This document shows, in pieces, positions 5,559 to 24,999 of a DNA stretch of 64,000 bases. The position numbers and the translations under genes were made by a program. The notes below the pieces were generated by a model. The model was given only the letters and a program-made list of their open reading frames with translations. It ran no database searches and was not told the origin of the DNA. The DNA comes from Anaeromyxobacter sp. (GTDB lineage Bacteria; Myxococcota; Myxococcia; Myxococcales; Anaeromyxobacteraceae). The number at the start of each line of letters is the position of its first letter. Position 1 is the stretch's first letter. The DNA lies in NCBI GenBank assembly GCA_049840735.1, contig JASGJN010000026.1:96001-160000 (forward strand), in the 5' to 3' direction.

Positions 5559-6019
5559 GCGCGCCACGGTCCGGCGGCGCCCTTCGACTCCGCCGCGGCT
5601 TCGCGGCGGCTACGCTCAGGGCGAACGGTGGTCCACTCCGTTCGGGCTGAGGGTGGCGTGCCCGGGCGACCGTAGGCGCGCACAGTCCGGCGGCGGCCCT
5701 TCGACTCCGCCGCGGCTTCGCCGCGGCTACGCTCAGGGCGAACGGTGCTCCTCCGTTCGGGCTGAGGGTGGCGAGCCCGAGAGGCCTTAGGCGCGGGCGG
5801 TCCAGCGGCGCCCTTCGACTCCGCCGCGGCTTCGCCGCGGCTACGCTCAGGGCGAACGGTGGTCCTCCGTTCGGGCTGAGAGTGGCGAGCCCGGGCGACC
5901 GTAGGCGCGCACAGTCCGGCGGCGGCCCTTCGACTCCGCCGCGGCTACGCTCAGGGCGAACGTGTTCCTCCGTTCGGGCTGAGCGTAGCGAGCCCGCAGG
6001 GCTCGCGGAGTCGAAGCCC
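5552..6019. repeat. Tandem (BIME-like) array of REP-like elements: 4 direct units of ~115 bp plus one inverted copy
   Basis: CCTTCGACTCC starts at 5581, 5698, 5812, 5927 (periods 117/114/115) with similar linkers; inverted copy about 5970-6017. Confidence 0.9.
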
Positions 6020-6039
6020 AGGTCCCGAGCGAGCGCCGC

Positions 6040-18502: not shown

Positions 18503-18549
18503 CGGCGCGGCGATCCCCGGGGGACCTGGCCACGCGCCAAGGGCCTGGG

Positions 18550-18698
18550 CTTCGACTCCGCGAGCCCTGCGGGCTCGCTACGCTCAGCCCGAACGGTGGC
18601 GGCCCCCGTTCGTGCTGATGGTCCTGGACGCACCGGCACGGACACGGGATCAGTTCGGCCTGAGCGTAGCGCCCGCGCAGCTGGCGCGGAGTCGAAGG
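18550..18698. repeat. Inverted pair of REP-like elements
   Basis: Forward 18550-18596, reverse 18653-18698. Confidence 0.88.
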
Positions 18699-18818
18699 AC
18701 AGGCGTCCAGCGGTCTTCGCGCCCCGGCCCCTGTGCGCGCAGGGATCACACCGGCCCGCCCCGCCTCCGCACGCGGTCCTTTCGCCGGCCCCGACGTTCG
18801 GTGCTATCGTTGCCGACC

Positions 18819-19394
18819 GTGAGCGACAGCGACAACCGGCGGTACGAGCGGATCGAGATCGAGCTTCCCTGCCGCCTGTTCATCCCCGGGCGCGAGGGGC
18901 TCCAGTTCGAGGCGTTCTGCACTTCGCGGAACCTCGGGCTGGGCGGGGCCTTCGTGGCCGCCACCTTCCTGCTGCGCGAGGGGCTGGAGCTGTTCATCGA
19001 GCTGGGCCTGCCGGAGGGGCCGCTCTCCATCCGCTCCCGCGTCGCGCACTCGGTCGATCTCGACGACGCCGAGTTCACCACCGGCATGGGGATCGAGTTC
19101 CTGGACGTCGACGCCCACGGGCGCGAGACGCTGCTCAGGTACTTCACCCCGTCCCGCTACCTGTCCTTCTACGAGGGCTTCGTGGAGGAGTTCCCGCACC
19201 TCCGCAAGACGGTGCCCATGCGCGACGTGGCGCTGGTGCTGAACCTCTGGGAGGAGTGGAAGATCCGGCAGGAGGGCGGCCCGGCCTCGACGGCCTCGGG
19301 CGCGCCGCCCGCGCCGCCGCTCCACCCCGGCGGGCGTCCGGCCGCGCAGGGCGCCCTGCCCGGCCCTGCACGGCAGAACGGCCGCAAGCGCTGA
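18819..19394 (+). CDS. PilZ domain protein
   Basis: RRYER (RxxxR), NLGLGG (D/NxxxGG), GMGIEF; GTG start assumed. Confidence 0.8.
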   Translation: MSDSDNRRYERIEIELPCRLFIPGREGLQFEAFCTSRNLGLGGAFVAATFLLREGLELFIELGLPEGPLSIRSRVAHSVDLDDAEFTTGMGIEFLDVDAHGRETLLRYFTPSRYLSFYEGFVEEFPHLRKTVPMRDVALVLNLWEEWKIRQEGGPASTASGAPPAPPLHPGGRPAAQGALPGPARQNGRKR

Positions 19395-19484
19395 CCGCTG
19401 AGCTGCCCCGGCCGCGACGGCGGTCGGGGCACCCTGACCATGCGCTCGCGTGCGCGCCCGCCCGGCGCCGGTTAGGGCAGTGGC

Positions 19485-19880
19485 GTGCCCGACCCGCGTC
19501 CGCCCTCCCTCGGCCTGCGCCACGCCGCGCTCCGCGTCCGCGACCTCGCCGCTGCGGAGGCCTTCTTCACGGGGCCGCTCGGCTACCGCGTGGAGTGGCG
19601 TCCGGACCCGGACAACGTCTACCTGATCCGCGACGCGGACAACCTGGCGCTGCACCGCGTCGACGCGGCGGACGGCCCGGGGCTGCTCGATCACCTCGGG
19701 CTGCTGGTGGCGAAGGCGGAGGACGTGGACGCCTGGGAGCGCCACCTGGACGCGGCGGGCGCCCGCGTCGTCGCCCGGGCCAGGACGCACCGCGACGGCG
19801 CCCGCTCGCTCTACGTGGAGGGGCCGGAGAAGATCGTCGTCCAGATCCTCCATCACCCGAAGGCGCTCGGGGGCGCCTGA
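19485..19880 (+). CDS. VOC/glyoxalase family protein
   Basis: LRHAALRVRDL...FF...LG; LDHLG; HRDGARSLY..GPE. Confidence 0.85.
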   Translation: MPDPRPPSLGLRHAALRVRDLAAAEAFFTGPLGYRVEWRPDPDNVYLIRDADNLALHRVDAADGPGLLDHLGLLVAKAEDVDAWERHLDAAGARVVARARTHRDGARSLYVEGPEKIVVQILHHPKALGGA

Positions 19881-19954
19881 TCGCCCACGCCCCGGTCGCT
19901 CGTCAGGGCAAACGATTGCCGGGGGCCCCGACCGGCGCTACCGTCCACGCCCAA

Positions 19955-22135
19955 ATGAAGCGCGTCCGCGTCGCCCTCCTGTGGCACATGCACCAGCCCC
20001 TCTACCGCGAGCCGGAGACGGGCGAGTACCTCATGCCCTGGGTCCGGCTGCACGCGACGCGCGCGTACAACGACATGGCGTGGATCCTGGAGCGCCACCC
20101 CGGCGTCCGCTGCACGGTCAACTTCGTGCCGGTGCTGCTGGAGCAGCTCGATGACTACGTGGAGGGGCGGGCCCGCGACCGGTTCCTGGACCTGACCGCG
20201 CGCCCGCCGGGCGACCTCACCGCCGAGGAGCGCCAGACCATCCTGCGGTCGTTCTTCATGGTGGGCTGGGAGACCAACATCCAGCCGCTGCCGCGCTACT
20301 GGGAGCTGCTCCAGAAGCGCGGCCGGGACCTGCGCCACGTGGACCTGGCCAAGCTGGCCCAGGGCTTCGGCGACCAGGAGCTCACCGACCTCCAGGTGCT
20401 CTTCAACCTGGCGTGGATGGGCTTCGGCGCGCTGGCTGACGAGCCGGCGCTGCGCGCGCTGCGGGAGAAGGGGCGGGACTTCACCCGCGCCGACGTGGCC
20501 ACGCTGCTCTCCGCCCAGTCGAGCATCGTGGCGGGGATCATCCCGCGCTGGCGGCGGCTGCAGGAGCGCGGGCAGGTGGAGCTCTCCTCCACGCCCTACT
20601 ACCACCCCATCCTCCCGCTGGTCTGCGACACCGACGCGGCCCGCCGCGCCATGCCGGGCGCGCACCTGCCGCCGCGCTTCGTCCACCCCGAGGACGCGCG
20701 CTGGCACGTCCGCGAGGCCGTGGCCACGCACGCCCGCCGCTTCGGCGCGCCGCCCGCCGGCATGTGGCCGGCGGAGGGCTCGGTCTCGCCCGAGGCGGTG
20801 GAGGTGCTGGCCAGCGAGGGCGTGCGCTGGGCGGCGAGCGACGAGGGCGTGCTGCTCCAGTCGCTGGGGCCGGGCGCCTCGCGGCTGCGCTCGCTCTACC
20901 GCCCCTGGCGCGTGACCGCCGGGCCGGGGCGCGAGCTGGCCATGCTCTTCCGCGACCGCTCGCTCTCCGACGTGATCGGCTTCACCTACTCGAAGGTGGC
21001 CGCCAAGCACGCCGTGCAGGACTTCATCGCCCATCTGCAGGGCGTGGGCGAGGCCTGGCAGCACGAGGGGCAGCCCGGCCCGGCCACCGTGGGCGTGTTC
21101 CTCGACGGCGAGAACGCCTGGGAGCACTACCCGAACTCCGGCCACGAGTTCCTGGACCGGTTCTACGGCGCGCTGGAGTCGCACCAGGACCTCCAGACGG
21201 TGACGCTCTCCGAGGCCACCGCCGACGCGCCCGGGCCGGTCATCCCGCGCATCCACTCCGGCTCCTGGATCGAGGCCAACTACCGGATCTGGATGGGCCA
21301 CGCCGAGGACCGGCAGGCCTGGGCCGCGCTGGGCAAGGCGCGCGAGATCGTGGCGCAGGCCGAGGCGGCCGGGACGGTGCCGGCGGAGCGGCTGGAGCGG
21401 GCCCGCCGCCACCTGTACGCGGCCGAGGGCTCGGACTGGTACTGGTGGTACGGCGAGGACTTCACCACCGAGCTGGCGGCGGAGTTCGACGGCCTCTTCC
21501 GCAACCACGTGATCCGGGCCGCGCTGCTGTGCGGCGCCCACCCGCCGCCCGAGGCGCTCACGCCCATCAAGCGCGCCGGCGGCGCCTCCGCCACCGGCCT
21601 CGAGGCGAAGCCGCTGCGCGAGCCGACGCTCCTGCTCACGCCGGAGCTGGACGGCAGGGAGACCACCTACTTCGAGTGGCAGGGCAGCGGCCTCTACCGC
21701 CCCGGCCAGCACCGCGGCTCGATGTTCGGCGGCGCGCAGGCCTTCCACGTGCTGCGCTACGGCTTCGACCTGGACGCGCTCTACGTCCGCCTCGACCCCG
21801 CCGAGTCGCCGGCCCGCTCGGCCGAGGTGGCCACGCACCTGCGCCTCACCTTCATGCTGCCGGACCGCCAGGCCTGGCTCGACTTCCCCATCCTGCCCGA
21901 CGGCCAGCGCCACGCCGGCCAGCTGCAGGGCAAGGCCGCCGGCCAGATCGCCTTCGCGCAGGTGGTCGAGCTGGCCGTCCCGTTCCGCGCCCTGGACCTC
22001 CCGCCCGGCCTGCAGGTGGCGGTGAGCGTGACCGCGCTCCGCAACGAGGTCGAGGTGGAGCGGCTGCCGCGCTACGGCTTCCTGCACTTCACCGTGCCGG
22101 ACGCCGACTTCGAGCGGGTGAACTGGCGGGTGTAG
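19955..22135 (+). CDS. Glycoside hydrolase family 57 (amylopullulanase-like)
   Basis: WHMHQP, YYHPILP, WPAEG, FRD..LSD, LDGENAWE, AEGSDWYWW. Confidence 0.93.
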   Translation: MKRVRVALLWHMHQPLYREPETGEYLMPWVRLHATRAYNDMAWILERHPGVRCTVNFVPVLLEQLDDYVEGRARDRFLDLTARPPGDLTAEERQTILRSFFMVGWETNIQPLPRYWELLQKRGRDLRHVDLAKLAQGFGDQELTDLQVLFNLAWMGFGALADEPALRALREKGRDFTRADVATLLSAQSSIVAGIIPRWRRLQERGQVELSSTPYYHPILPLVCDTDAARRAMPGAHLPPRFVHPEDARWHVREAVATHARRFGAPPAGMWPAEGSVSPEAVEVLASEGVRWAASDEGVLLQSLGPGASRLRSLYRPWRVTAGPGRELAMLFRDRSLSDVIGFTYSKVAAKHAVQDFIAHLQGVGEAWQHEGQPGPATVGVFLDGENAWEHYPNSGHEFLDRFYGALESHQDLQTVTLSEATADAPGPVIPRIHSGSWIEANYRIWMGHAEDRQAWAALGKAREIVAQAEAAGTVPAERLERARRHLYAAEGSDWYWWYGEDFTTELAAEFDGLFRNHVIRAALLCGAHPPPEALTPIKRAGGASATGLEAKPLREPTLLLTPELDGRETTYFEWQGSGLYRPGQHRGSMFGGAQAFHVLRYGFDLDALYVRLDPAESPARSAEVATHLRLTFMLPDRQAWLDFPILPDGQRHAGQLQGKAAGQIAFAQVVELAVPFRALDLPPGLQVAVSVTALRNEVEVERLPRYGFLHFTVPDADFERVNWRV

Positions 22136-22190
22136 CGGCGTTCTCCCGCTGAGCCGTGCTCCGGATCCGTTCGGCCTTCTATGAAGCGGC

Positions 22191-22485
22191 GTCCCCGGTC
22201 AAGGGCCGGTGATGTCGTTTGTCCTGAAGCCTGGGCGGCGCTGGTTGGCCATCGGTCAGGGAGTCAGGCGAACGCGAGTTCCATCAGCCTTCTATTCGCG
22301 CTCAACAGGGGCGGCAGTGCCGCCGGCGCAGTGGGGGATTCGAGCAGGGGGCGCCATCTGAGCGACGGCCGTTCCTGGTGACCGGCCAAGGCCGAACTCG
22401 CGCTCACCCTGTCTCGAAACCCGCTTTCGCCTCACTCCCGGATCTCCGGCCCGGCGTCCGCCCGACTGGGTCCGATTTCGGTCGT
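22191..22485 (-). ncRNA. Putative bridge/seek RNA of the IS1111 element (boundaries approximate)
   Basis: Non-coding region downstream of the transposase with target-matching segments at 22388-22397 and 22354-22364 and element-end-matching segments at 22279-22295, each framed by short stems. Confidence 0.75.
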
Positions 22486-23525
22486 CTAGGCCATCGCGTT
22501 TCCCCTGCAGGTGCGGCTGCCGTCGAAGTCCTTCCCGTCCCTCATCATCGCGAACAGGATTCCGGAGAGTTTGCGCGCCAGCGCCACGACGGCGACTGCG
22601 CGTCCCCTCCGCCGGTGGATCTTCCCCGCCCATTCGCGCAGCGGTAGCGACTCTGCGCTCTTGCTGCGCAAGACGCAGTGCGCGGCCTGGACGAGAAGCC
22701 AGCGCACCCTGGCGTTGCCGGTCTTGGTGATCCGCCCCTTGCGCTGTTTCTCGCCCGAGCTCAGCTCGCTAGGGACCAGGCCGCAGTAGGCGGACACCTG
22801 CTGGGCACTCTGGAAGCGCTTGGGATCATCGATGACGACGTCGTATGCGATGGCCGTCACGATGCCCACGCCTGGCGCCGTCGTGAGCCTCCGTACCACT
22901 GCGCTGTCGCGGGCGATGGCCTCGAGGTCAGCGTCGGCCTTGGCGATCCGGGCGTTCAGCGTGTCGAACATCAGCAGCAACGGCTCGATCTCGTCGCGGA
23001 CCTCGTCCGGCAGGGCCCATCTCATCTCCCAACACCACCCGCGCGAAGTGCTCGGCTTCGCAGCTCGGGGCCCGTAGCCCGTGGCTCCGCAAGGACGTCC
23101 GGGTCACCGTGATGAACCGCGACCTGGTGCGGACCAGCGTGTCTCTCACCGACAGGCGGACAGCGACCGTCCGCCGGGATTCCGACCTCCGGTGGGCCGC
23201 TCGGTAGGTCCCTGAACGGCAAGCCTCGGCCAGCGCTCGGGCATCTCGCCGATCTGGTCTTTACCCGCCTCGTCCGCGTCCCGTACATCGGCGCGTAGTT
23301 CGGGTCGGCCACGATCACTTCGTGCCCGAGCGATTCGATGTGCCGCGCCACCCATTCGCTTTCCGTGGAGGCCTCCAGCAGGAGCTTGGCCCGCGGCCTG
23401 TTCGCGAGCACCTCGGCGAACCGGTCGGCCCGGGTGGGGATCCGCACCTCCAGAACCCCGCCCTCCGCGTTCAGGATGCAAAGCTGGCTGTCCTTCTTGT
23501 GCAGGTCGATGCCAATATGGTCCAC
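22486..23525 (-). CDS. IS110-family DEDD recombinase/transposase (two apparent frameshifts, ~23255 and ~23020)
   Basis: GIDLHK, LEAS, KT[D]RRDA after correction, PGVG, GLVPSELSSG, GRITKTGN, VALARKL. Confidence 0.92.
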
Positions 23526-23612
23526 GGCTGGTCTCCACTCTCTGCGGCTCTGACCGCGTTGTGGGGCATTCGTGCCACCACCCCGAGGTGGAGGCCAGCC
23601 GCTTCATTCCAT

Positions 23613-23651
23613 CTGAGCGTAGCGAGCCCGCAGGGCTCGCGGAGTCGAAGG
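23613..23651 (-). repeat. Remainder of the REP interrupted by the IS (other part at 22167-22177)
   Basis: CTGAGCGTAGCGAGCCCGCAGGGCTCGCGGAGTCGAAGG, same hairpin as the copies at 5979 and 18550. Confidence 0.9.
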
Positions 23652-23763
23652 CCAGGGGTTCACTTCCAGGCACCTCCTCCCGATCTTGCTGGATCTGGCA
23701 AACCGGTTGGCTATACAAACTGAACCGAGGGTAGGGCCCGACTGGACCGGGCCGGGGGGACGC

Positions 23764-24999
23764 ATGACCGCGAACGAGGGCACGCCAACGCTCCAGGAGT
23801 GGACGGAGCGGTACGAGCAGTGGACGGGCAAGGACCTGGGGTTCAGCCGCGTGGCGGCGGGGCTGTTCCTGCTGGTCGGGGCGGGGTTGGTGCTCGCAGA
23901 GCACTGGCGCTGGGCGTACGTGGCCGTCGCGGCGGCGCCCGTGTTTATCTGTCTGGCCCGGCTGATCGAATCCAGCGTCCATCGCTGGACGGCGCTCAAG
24001 CGCGCAGACCTCGAACAGCCCATCCGACCGCGGCCTCGGGAGCTGGGGTGGGTCGCACTCGGGATCGGCGTGGCCGCCGGCATGGTCGTCCTGGGCTGGC
24101 CAGAGTTCTGGATCGGGTTCGATCCCTGGTTCTTCTTCGGGCTCGCGCTGCTGATCACCGCCGCGGCGTTCGCCGTGGGGCTTCCGATCGTGGGGGAGGA
24201 TACGTCCTGGGCCGCCGTGCTGCTGGCTGGTGCCGGAGGTGCATCGCTCCTCTCGGAGGCCGGGGTCCTGGGCGCGGCGGTCGTCTCCGGATCCGGCCTC
24301 CTGCTGCTCAGCACCGGCGCTCGCGTGGCGCGCGACTACCGGCGCACGCGAAAAGGCTTCGTCGCGGCCTGGAGCGAGGCGCTTCGCAGGTCGCCCCCGC
24401 AGCGCGACCTCGTCAGGGTCGCGTACGACACCCGCAGCCTGGCCACGCTCTCCGCCCACGCGCGCGGCGTCGGAGACGTGATCGTGGGTCTCTGGATGTT
24501 GGCGGCTGCCGGGTTCAACGAGCTGTTTGGAGCGTCAGTCGGTCTGCCCATGCTCCTTGGGACGCTGCTCGTGTACCTGGCGGTCCTGGCGCCGGCGCGC
24601 CGCTACTACCAGCGGACCGGGCTCGTAGCCGCCGATCCCGGAAAGCTGATCTCGAAGATGCGAAGGATCGGGCTGCCGCTAGCCATCGTGGTCCTGCTCT
24701 TCCAGGCGTCCTTCGCGGCGATGATGCTGCACGGGGCGACGCGCTGGATCTGCATGGGGCTCCTCATCACGCCGGCGGCCCTGCTCCCGTGGGTTGCCAA
24801 CGGGAACCTGGATGCATTCATGGTGATCCCGCTGTCGCAAATCCCGTTCACCGTGGTGCGGGATCCGGGCGTCAACACGATGACCTGGGTGGTCCTGGGC
24901 ATCTCGCTGGCGGCGTTCGGCCTCTTCGGCCACGTCAGGTTCCAGCAGCTCAGCGCGAAGCTCCGCGGACCGCCTCCTGGCGAAGCAGCCTCCACATGA
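23764..24999 (+). CDS. Multi-pass membrane hypothetical protein
   Basis: About 12 hydrophobic segments; GGGGGA SD; stop overlaps the next ATG (ATGA). Confidence 0.7.
   Translation: MTANEGTPTLQEWTERYEQWTGKDLGFSRVAAGLFLLVGAGLVLAEHWRWAYVAVAAAPVFICLARLIESSVHRWTALKRADLEQPIRPRPRELGWVALGIGVAAGMVVLGWPEFWIGFDPWFFFGLALLITAAAFAVGLPIVGEDTSWAAVLLAGAGGASLLSEAGVLGAAVVSGSGLLLLSTGARVARDYRRTRKGFVAAWSEALRRSPPQRDLVRVAYDTRSLATLSAHARGVGDVIVGLWMLAAAGFNELFGASVGLPMLLGTLLVYLAVLAPARRYYQRTGLVAADPGKLISKMRRIGLPLAIVVLLFQASFAAMMLHGATRWICMGLLITPAALLPWVANGNLDAFMVIPLSQIPFTVVRDPGVNTMTWVVLGISLAAFGLFGHVRFQQLSAKLRGPPPGEAAST

Follow-up and report, generated by a model that had tools for sequence, protein, structure and literature searches.

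Donor-end reading by the predicted bridge/seek RNA of an IS1111-type element in Anaeromyxobacter sp. appears to follow a known two-strand scheme

How does an IS1111-type insertion sequence recognize its own two ends? The question is raised by a short non-coding segment of Anaeromyxobacter sp., in which two strings identical to opposite ends of such an element lie side by side. In the stretch of DNA analysed here (hereafter "the window," 64,000 nucleotides), TTCCATC is found at 22279–22285 and again at 23607–23613, and the 9-mer GCCTTCTAT at 22287–22295 and again at 22174–22182, the inner pair of strings being bracketed by CGCGA (22273–22277) and TCGCG (22296–22300); all of these positions, which come from a first-pass annotation of the window, were confirmed. 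That annotation took CGCGA and TCGCG to close a terminal loop holding two donor guides of the same strand, and read this as a mode of donor recognition different from that of IS621. We examined which of the two strings behaves as a guide when the element is compared with its relatives, and in what fold such a guide would be presented.

The element itself spans window positions 22178–23614 on the minus strand (1437 bp, with one copy of the core dinucleotide counted) and is one of five copies in this genome, which share 98–100% identity. Borders were set by aligning the five copies and their flanks against 101 uninterrupted sites; identity among the copies starts within ...CCGTTCGGCCT and stops within CTGAGCGTAG.... 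In all five cases the insertion lies at the CT of GTTCGGC-CT-GAGCG, inside a REP-like repeat (consensus drawn from 159 uninterrupted sites), with CT at both junctions and no target duplication beyond this shared dinucleotide. Since the genome has 101 uninterrupted copies of GTTCGGC-CT-GAGCG and five of each junction string, the CT dinucleotide of the REP-like repeat is the insertion site. The right part of the repeat (Table 1) has 51 short matches elsewhere in the genome, and the circle-junction string has no match in the assembly.

Table 1. Features of the element and of its predicted RNA, in window coordinates; paired segments are joined by "with."
Feature	Position	Strand	Remarks
REP-like target repeat, right part	23613–23658	+	Begins with core CT; left part at 22161–22177
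Sub-terminal inverted repeat, arm adjoining the RNA gene	22181–22190		10 nt, 100% complementary to 23598–23607
Sub-terminal inverted repeat, arm preceding the transposase gene	23598–23607		Partner of 22181–22190
TTGACC, -35-like box	22197–22202	-	Putative half-promoter of the circle junction; 7-nt gap to the right repeat
DEDD transposase gene	22486–23525	-	Broken in the window copy
Predicted bridge/seek RNA core enclosed by P0	22259–22439	-	Inferred; true ends may extend differently
Basal stem P0	22418–22439 with 22259–22280	-	From inverted arms, ensemble and compensation
Target-binding module	22351–22403	-	Helix A encloses guide 1, hairpin 1 and guide 2
Helix A	22400–22403 with 22351–22354	-	100% paired; GC to AU in 7 sequences
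Target guide 1	22388–22397	-	RNA GUUCGGCCUU; 10-nt antisense match to right flank plus core
Hairpin 1	22383–22388 with 22366–22371	-	Between target guides 1 and 2
Target guide 2	22356–22364	-	RNA CGCUC+AG+AU; complementary to + strand GAGCG plus core
C-rich junction strand between helices A and B	22330–22350	-	Candidate opposite-strand left-end donor guide
Helix B	22325–22329 with 22298–22301 and 22303	-	99.5% paired; module 22298–22329 capped by hairpin 2
Hairpin 2	22320–22324 with 22310–22314	-	4 pairs alignment-tested; two-sided changes in 29 and 28 sequences at 2 pairs
Donor guide AUAGA+AG	22289–22295	-	Plus GC at 22287–22288; sense of right end plus core
Conserved strand without covariation	22279–22286	-	RNA UGAUGGAA; holds TTCCATC; 22279–22280 pair in P0

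The 10-bp sub-terminal inverted repeat described in the first-pass annotation was found again at both of its positions (Table 1). In transposase orientation, 7 bp (AGATGGA) precede the left repeat and 3 bp (AGA) follow the right one; the left repeat (23598) and the transposase start (23525) are about 72 nt apart, and the non-coding sequence from the stop codon (22486) to the right repeat (22190) measures 295 nt. The accessible text of Durrant et al. (2024; PMC11208160) gives sub-terminal inverted repeats of about 7–17 bp for the IS1111 group, and that of Siddiquee et al. (2024; PMC11187229) gives, in transposase orientation, a left extension of 7 bp and a right one of 3 bp. With its 10-bp repeats, 7-bp/3-bp extensions and a long non-coding region that follows the gene, the element falls into this group and, as far as sequence can tell, is an ordinary member with a predicted bridge/seek RNA. 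The -35-like box near the right repeat has counterparts in relatives—of 93 unique 30-mers upstream of the right end, 84 contain TTGAC, at a gap of 7 nt in 58—and a junction promoter is described for ISEc11 in the available part of PMC11187229.

The transposase gene of the window copy is interrupted by two indels (an extra T at 23255 and a 7-bp insertion at 23018–23024) that split it into open reading frames of 167 and 179 aa, and an intact frame of 343 aa is present in three other genomic copies. The intact copy carries both domains that mark the IS110 family, i.e., an N-terminal DEDD/RuvC-like domain (PF01548, DEDD_Tnp_IS110; E 3.1e-13) and a C-terminal Transposase_20 domain (PF02371; E 1.1e-23).

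For comparison we used 160 relatives recovered with the intact transposase as query (45–67% amino-acid identity), drawn in equal parts from genome contigs (80 of 138 confirmed loci) and metagenome contigs (80 of 518 confirmed loci). Together with the five own copies these make 165 loci, 149 of which show both RNA modules; a recognizable donor module is absent in 12 and the target module in 4. Filtering left 117 unique RNAs. Most relatives keep the repeat core TGAAGCGGC, so their ends could be placed, and they were inferred from this anchor, without empty sites. The alignment used for folding (A1) holds 88 of 109 listed unique RNAs, with L086, L102, L115 and L117 omitted for mis-set 5′ anchors along with 17 others. 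Significance of covariation was taken from permutation of the end/RNA pairings, a procedure that ignores relatedness among elements.

Several lines suggest that the flagged bases belong to a bridge (seek) RNA read from the minus strand, in the stretch that follows the transposase gene. The 295-nt region between gene and repeat contains four matches to the junctions in the window copy, and two of these surround a hairpin and match both target strands, over 10 and 11 nt. Target guide 1 has the sense of + strand GTTCGGC+CT and would thus serve, with the core read as CT, as left target guide; relatives repeat this arrangement. The match of target guide 2 extends to 11 nt (CGCUCAG+AUGG, 22364 to 22354), in the sense of the left flank, the core and the first bases of the left end; in 61 of 75 relatives its 2-nt handshake-like extension is identical to the left-end bases. 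No Rfam family was found over 21900–23900 at E up to 1. The folding energy of the 317-nt non-coding region is unexceptional (z -1.58, with 8 of 100 shuffles folding as well), so energy alone is uninformative here. The RNA would be produced and bound by the transposase; a look for sequencing runs listed no RNA run and a single DNA run, which shares 0.05 of the sampled words.

Of the two flagged strings, the 9-mer stands out. The window has two copies where 0.07 would be expected, a count that none of 100 shuffles reached; among 5000 shuffled non-coding regions, 185 contained a 9-nt match of any kind to the right-junction window. Its RNA-sense reading is AUAGAAG+GC. Of the 102 unique elements whose right end could be read, 101 have the same base at the variable position N of the loop motif (A-N-AGAAG) and at the right end (N-AGA): C/C in 64, T/T in 17 and G/G in 20, the sole exception being G/C in L086. 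The 5′ half of the flagged segment (RNA sense) thus carries a guide that tracks the right end, and the claim of the first-pass annotation that this segment is donor-binding holds up on sequence grounds. The right-end sense score is 12.58 against a null of 9.92, with 6 of 5000 permutations reaching the observed value when relatedness is ignored. Individual relatives fit the same rule, e.g., the double change in L090 (TAAA with AUAAAAG) and the AA core of L051 and L121, whose loop AGAAAG carries a fitting extra A. Loop and right-junction six-mers are identical in 49 of 79 elements of alignment A1; among the 30 that differ, 29 do so at a core position only (CAGAAA or CAGAGG vs. loop CAGAAG) and one pairs TAGAAG with TCGAAG. 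We conclude from these comparisons that the 9-mer holds a real donor guide. With the core read as CT, AUAGA-AG, which has the sense of the right end and core, would act as the right donor guide together with its core and handshake positions.

The remaining GC of the 9-mer corresponds to flanking target (22174–22175), outside the element. A handshake role for this GC was considered and dropped; loop and flank agree in 25 of 79 cases only, and covariation is lacking. The first base after the donor-guide core is G in almost all relatives.

TTCCATC behaves differently. In RNA sense it is GAUGGAA, i.e., the sense of the core G plus the left end, and it occurs three times in the window against 2.16 expected, with at least three occurrences in 40 of 100 shuffles; a 7-nt left-end match on either strand is found in 1623 of 5000 shuffled non-coding regions. 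When the loop 3′ half (CUGAUGGAAC) is scored against the left end, the sense comparison gives 5.59 (null 5.68) and the antisense comparison 4.49 (null 4.59), values that 3146 and 3755 of 5000 permutations, respectively, reach. Neither parts of the left end nor the AGAT clade taken alone yielded covariation with the loop 3′ half, and inspection by eye gave no consistent complement between this half and the C-rich strand. A guide role for the loop 3′ half, sense or antisense, was rejected, having failed every covariation sub-test. Single elements illustrate the point. L031 (66–67% identity) has the window's left end AGATGGAA and left flank with a loop (AUGACGAACC) that lacks a TTCCATC match, L190 has the same left end with a different unmatched loop (GUGAGGAACC), and one loop sequence, AUGAGGAACC, accompanies three different left ends. 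Among 49 unique loop/end combinations, that of the window element is the only one with a same-sense left-end match of at least 6 nt, all 48 others having at most 5 nt. In the 88 aligned RNAs, U and G of a UGA motif are invariant and its A is at least 90% conserved, so the TTCCATC identity derives in part from family-wide motifs. On these sequence comparisons the identity of TTCCATC with the far end looks like a coincidence. The covariation of loop and ends that the first-pass annotation had named as a check is thus present for the 9-mer core with the right end but absent for TTCCATC with the left end.

The conservation of the UGA strand at 22279–22286 could have a different meaning, namely that of a separate third contact, either with the TGAAG start of the repeat or with protein through a kink-turn-like motif, beside the 7-nt guide for one end and a split, bulged guide for the other; in this IS1111 lineage, long repeats and short guides would then replace the long donor guides of IS621, and the 7-nt left-end identity of the window element would be a lineage-specific reinforcement of that contact. 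We think this unlikely.

RNAalifold on the 88 unique RNAs of A1 returned four helices (helices A and B and hairpins 1 and 2; Table 1), with 99.0% of consensus cells paired vs. 92.9% in shuffles and nine pairs changed on both sides, a result that none of 500 shuffles reached. In helix B, two of five pairs show compensatory changes (in 3 and 6 of 88 sequences), two are invariant and the fifth departs by one unpaired cell only; the compensatory change in helix A probably reflects one lineage. One pair of hairpin 1 is U-G in 75 of 88 sequences and would be a mismatch on the other strand, which places the RNA in transposase sense, on the minus strand.

The basal stem P0 closes the whole. Of its 22 positions, 18 pair with probabilities of 0.72–1.0 in the Boltzmann ensemble of a 221-nt RNA, the first pair having 0.40 and the two mismatches 0. 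P0 is compensated at one position between L031 and the window (GGCAAA/UUUGCC vs. GGCGAA/UUCGCC), and relatives show pairings of their own (GAUCGAG/CUCGAUC, AUUCGAG/CUCGAAU, UCUCAGC/GCUGAGA and UCUUCUCAGCGG/UCGCUGAGGAGA). The best complementary run averages 6.83 within an RNA and 5.49 between RNAs, the own run being the longer in 83 of 106 cases. A short stem between bases 5′ of helix A (alignment columns 2–6) and the CUCG strand was also tried and set aside; relatives with A at column 3 break it, and the P0 strand fits better.

The stem between CGCGA and TCGCG fares poorly by the same measures. Its probability in the 221-nt ensemble is about 0.006 (helix A, about 1.0; helix B, 0.11), and forcing it raises the energy from -107.9 to -104.1 kcal/mol, a cost of 3.8 kcal/mol. 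In the alignment, an extended version of eight pairs has 55.8% of its cells paired and no compensatory change in the five core pairs, variable bases of the 3′ strand standing opposite an invariant 5′ strand. As the alignment shifts one clade by two columns, we recounted the stem after re-anchoring on CUCG, and found five pairs possible in 18, four in 67 and three in 21 of 107 unique RNAs; a local hairpin is thus physically possible. Yet three of the five bases of its RNA 5′ strand are used by helix B and its 3′ strand belongs to P0, so that the strands proposed to close a terminal loop pair instead in two other helices, both with compensatory changes. Ensemble and comparative fold together place the donor guide in the junction strand between helix B and P0.

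These data bear directly on the reading that began this inquiry, in which a terminal hairpin loop would present two same-sense guides that mimic the circle junction and read one donor strand, helped by the sub-terminal repeats. There is something to be said for it: the two strings do occur, separated by a single base, just 164 of 5000 shuffled non-coding regions put a 7-nt match to the left end no more than 12 nt from the guide, and the hairpin folds on its own at -9.5 kcal/mol. However, the second string neither covaries with its end nor recurs in the relatives (see the permutations, L031, L190 and the 49 combinations above), the stem is both improbable and costly in the longer RNA, and the variable bases of its 3′ strand go uncompensated on a 5′ strand while both strands have other covarying partners. 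We therefore regard two same-sense guides in one loop as highly improbable. A milder version would let the local hairpin form in a shorter processed RNA, or co-transcriptionally before P0 closes, and present AUAGAAG from there, with TTCCATC still no guide. Such a conformer would be consistent with the 85 of 107 unique RNAs in which at least four of the five pairs are possible, and with the occurrence of IS1111 seekRNAs in short and long forms, the role of the long form being described as unsettled in the accessible text of PMC11187229. Against it stand the 221-nt ensemble, which disfavors the hairpin, and the contrast between a stem without compensatory change and its competitors, helix B and P0, which have it; on balance we consider a transient hairpin of this kind improbable.

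If TTCCATC does not read the left end, the C-rich strand upstream of helix B may. Its antisense score against the left end of the same element is 9.05 (null 7.54, sd 0.33), a value reached in none of 5000 permutations, relatedness being ignored. A signal also comes from positions 4–8 by themselves (1 of 3000) and from within the AGAT clade (9 of 3000), whereas positions 1–4 (622 of 3000) and 5–8 (303 of 3000) taken alone are not significant. Clear matches occur in L033 (CAUCCCC), L053 (CAUACC-AUC), L089, L090 and L120; in many relatives the match is bulged, and it is often interrupted by 1–4 bases. In the window copy the match is weak (score 7, CCA-CU; AAUCC...CCACU vs. the expected complement of AGATGGAATG), and L038, L048 and L106 have one common C-rich sequence with different left ends. 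A guide that covaries with its end is thus clear for the right end, and for the left end takes the form of a statistical signal in the C-rich strand. On this signal, the C-rich strand is the candidate guide for the left end. As an opposite-sense left-end guide is statistically detectable upstream, the supposed contrast with IS621 dissolves, and with it the variant donor recognition that the first-pass annotation had proposed.

The weakness of the C-rich match in this copy would suit a model in which the RNA reads one donor end only, the transposase recognizing the left end through the sub-terminal repeat and the 2-nt extension of guide 2, and the C-rich resemblance being incidental. Conservation of the repeat core among relatives with different guides would sit well with this model, as would the shared C-rich sequence of L038, L048 and L106 and the sub-tests on positions 1–4 and 5–8. 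It is harder to reconcile with the full-length antisense result, with the signals from positions 4–8 and from the AGAT clade, and with the long and specific C-rich matches of L033, L053, L089 and L120. Reading of one end only is, in our assessment, rather unlikely.

What we favor, and consider probable, is a three-way-junction RNA with one real guide in the flagged loop and an IS621-like, two-strand reading of the donor. In this model, P0, the target-binding module and helix B (capped by hairpin 2) would form the three arms, and the donor-reading bases would lie in the two single-stranded junction strands that flank helix B. The 3′ junction strand would begin with AUAGA-AG and pair with one strand of the RNA-gene-side end plus core, while the 5′, C-rich strand would pair imperfectly with the other strand of the far end. 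The remainder of the loop, UGAUGGAAC, would be a conserved non-guide strand, whose last bases (A22280 and A22279 of the 7-mer) enter P0. With the core read as CT and the window + strand on top, guide 1 shares the sense of the top strand and thus would bind the bottom one; guide 2 would bind the top strand and, past the core complement, extend by two bases whose match is to the donor end and not to the target. For the donor, the same pattern would recur in the C-rich strand and AUAGA-AG-G(C), so that the order from 5′ to 3′ becomes left target guide, right target guide (plus core and handshake), left donor guide, and right donor guide (again plus core and handshake). The chemistry of strand exchange would follow that of related systems by analogy.

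Donor recognition in this element thus appears to follow the known two-strand scheme, as read from sequence comparison, with no variant mechanism. The suggestive pair of matches in a hairpin resolves into one true guide and one apparent coincidence, and a new mode of donor recognition is not supported. The gain is modest. A three-way-junction fold is supported, a second donor guide is placed, as a candidate, in the strand before helix B, and 117 unique IS1111 relatives now give covariation support for the location of one donor guide.

How does this arrangement compare with known systems? For IS621, the accessible text of Hiraizumi et al. (2024; PMC11208158) describes a handshake layout of RTG, core and HSG from 5′ to 3′. 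The element studied here resembles IS621 in its DEDD recombinase, in a CT core within a REP-like repeat, in two opposite-sense target guides placed around a hairpin inside a closing helix, and in a top-strand guide followed by the core complement and 1–2 handshake bases, with the donor guide laid out in the same way. In IS621, left guides reportedly lie 5′ of right guides (in part by base positions in the accessible text), and the predicted RNA has the same 5′-to-3′ guide order when the core is read as CT. The two systems differ in that the RNA gene here follows the transposase gene, with transcription running towards the end that the RNA reads, and in that the sub-terminal repeats measure 10 bp here and 2–3 bp in IS621. 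The donor guides differ as well: in IS621 they occupy an internal loop of their own, whereas here they would lie in strands of a three-way junction, and the left one is short, interrupted and weak. A donor loop of the IS621 type (i.e., two opposite-sense guides in an internal loop with its own basal stem) was not found, P0 also enclosing the target module.

Placement of donor-reading bases in a junction has a precedent in the IS1111 group. According to the accessible text of Durrant et al. (2024; PMC11208160), many IS1111 orthologues have the nucleotides that might bind the donor within a multi-loop rather than in a simple internal loop, and the multi-loop placement in the predicted bridge RNAs of ISCARN28, ISAzs32 and ISPa11, compared by text and legends, agrees with the junction placement suggested here. 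Among the published descriptions of IS1111 donor loops, as far as their accessible parts extend, the text of Durrant et al. alone makes such a statement; PMC13626964 names IS1111 in its reference list only, and the accessible parts of PMC12288879 and 10.1101/2024.06.21.599552 hold no relevant detail on IS1111 donor loops.

The element also resembles those that encode the seekRNAs of ISEc11, ISPa11, ISKpn4 and ISPst6, which, in the available text of PMC11187229, share with this element the 7-bp/3-bp extensions, a long non-coding region downstream of the transposase gene, a top-strand match in the 5′ position, no duplication beyond the dinucleotide and a candidate junction promoter. The target here differs from theirs in being a REP-like repeat of this genome. 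The same text, in its accessible part, assigns target matches only and leaves end recognition open, whereas one donor guide is supported by covariation here. It also describes, for IS1111 seekRNAs, a top-strand match 5′ of the bottom-strand match, an order reversed relative to the transposase gene. We infer that this "reversed order" arises from gene and RNA lying on the other strand relative to the CT core; a guide order equal to that of IS621, once the core is read as CT, would explain it.

All five of the IS1111-type insertion sequence (IS) copies in this genome lie in a REP-like repeat, a ~45-bp element with a variable palindromic centre that occurs more than 50 times in the genome and, on other contigs, partly in tandem arrays with a spacing of 105 nt or ~233 nt. 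An intact insertion site is retained in 101 REP-like repeat copies across the genome. The long ORF beside the IS (see table) ends ~40 nt ahead of the insertion site.

Features in the window
Feature	Position	Strand	Remark
REP-like repeat	23613-23658		
REP-like repeat, further copies	5979-6022, 18544-18587, 18660-18706		
Long ORF	18596-22135	+	1179 aa from listed start
TTGACC	22197-22202	minus	7 nt ahead of right sub-terminal repeat

The window IS copy is a pseudogene, with an extra T at 23255 and a 7-bp insertion with four adjacent substitutions at 23018-23028; the indels of a fourth copy (contig C4) differ from these. Compared with intact copies, the RNA region of the window copy—the inferred bridge/seek RNA—is identical except for two substitutions (22304 and 22384).

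Among relatives of the Gemmatimonadota type, many loci (L032, L034, L037, L040 and similar) have AA or GG as the right-junction dinucleotide. AG stands both at the left junction and in the donor guide of the RNA. Where the right-junction dinucleotide is AA, the top-strand target guide of the RNA is complementary to AA. These patterns suggest that such elements inserted into sites whose core differs by one base from the donor core.

One sequence of the C-rich strand of the RNA is common to L038, L048, L106, L142 and others with differing left ends (AGATAAGA, AGATAGGA), and L149 and L190 share both strands with left ends one base apart; either mismatches are tolerated, or some of these copies have decayed. 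Upstream of helix A, Gemmatimonadota-type relatives (e.g., L037, L045) have the hexamer AGCGGC, which exactly matches the inner portion of the sub-terminal inverted repeat and is followed immediately by the first GAGCGCG motif; in the window (22427 to 22422) and in L031, AAGCGG lies within the 5' strand of the basal stem P0. The repeat itself, which some RNA segment might read, is nearly invariant among relatives.

TTGAC recurs at a set spacing from the right sub-terminal repeat: 84 of 93 unique relatives have it, with a gap of 7 nt in 58, 8 nt in 11 and 2 nt in 15. Judged by position, the window's TTGACC may be the -35 half of a candidate promoter that would be completed across the circle junction; a junction promoter is reported for ISEc11 in PMC11187229.

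Outside the Gemmatimonadota-type clade, many relatives show the pattern x-UGA-N-GA, in the forms UGAUGA, UGAGGA, UGACGA and UGAAGA, in the conserved strand 3' of the donor guide (22279-22286, minus, in the window; its counterpart in L031-L190). This pattern may resemble the consensus for box C in C/D RNAs. IS110 transposases are linked to Nop5-family proteins in a preprint (10.1101/2024.06.21.599552).
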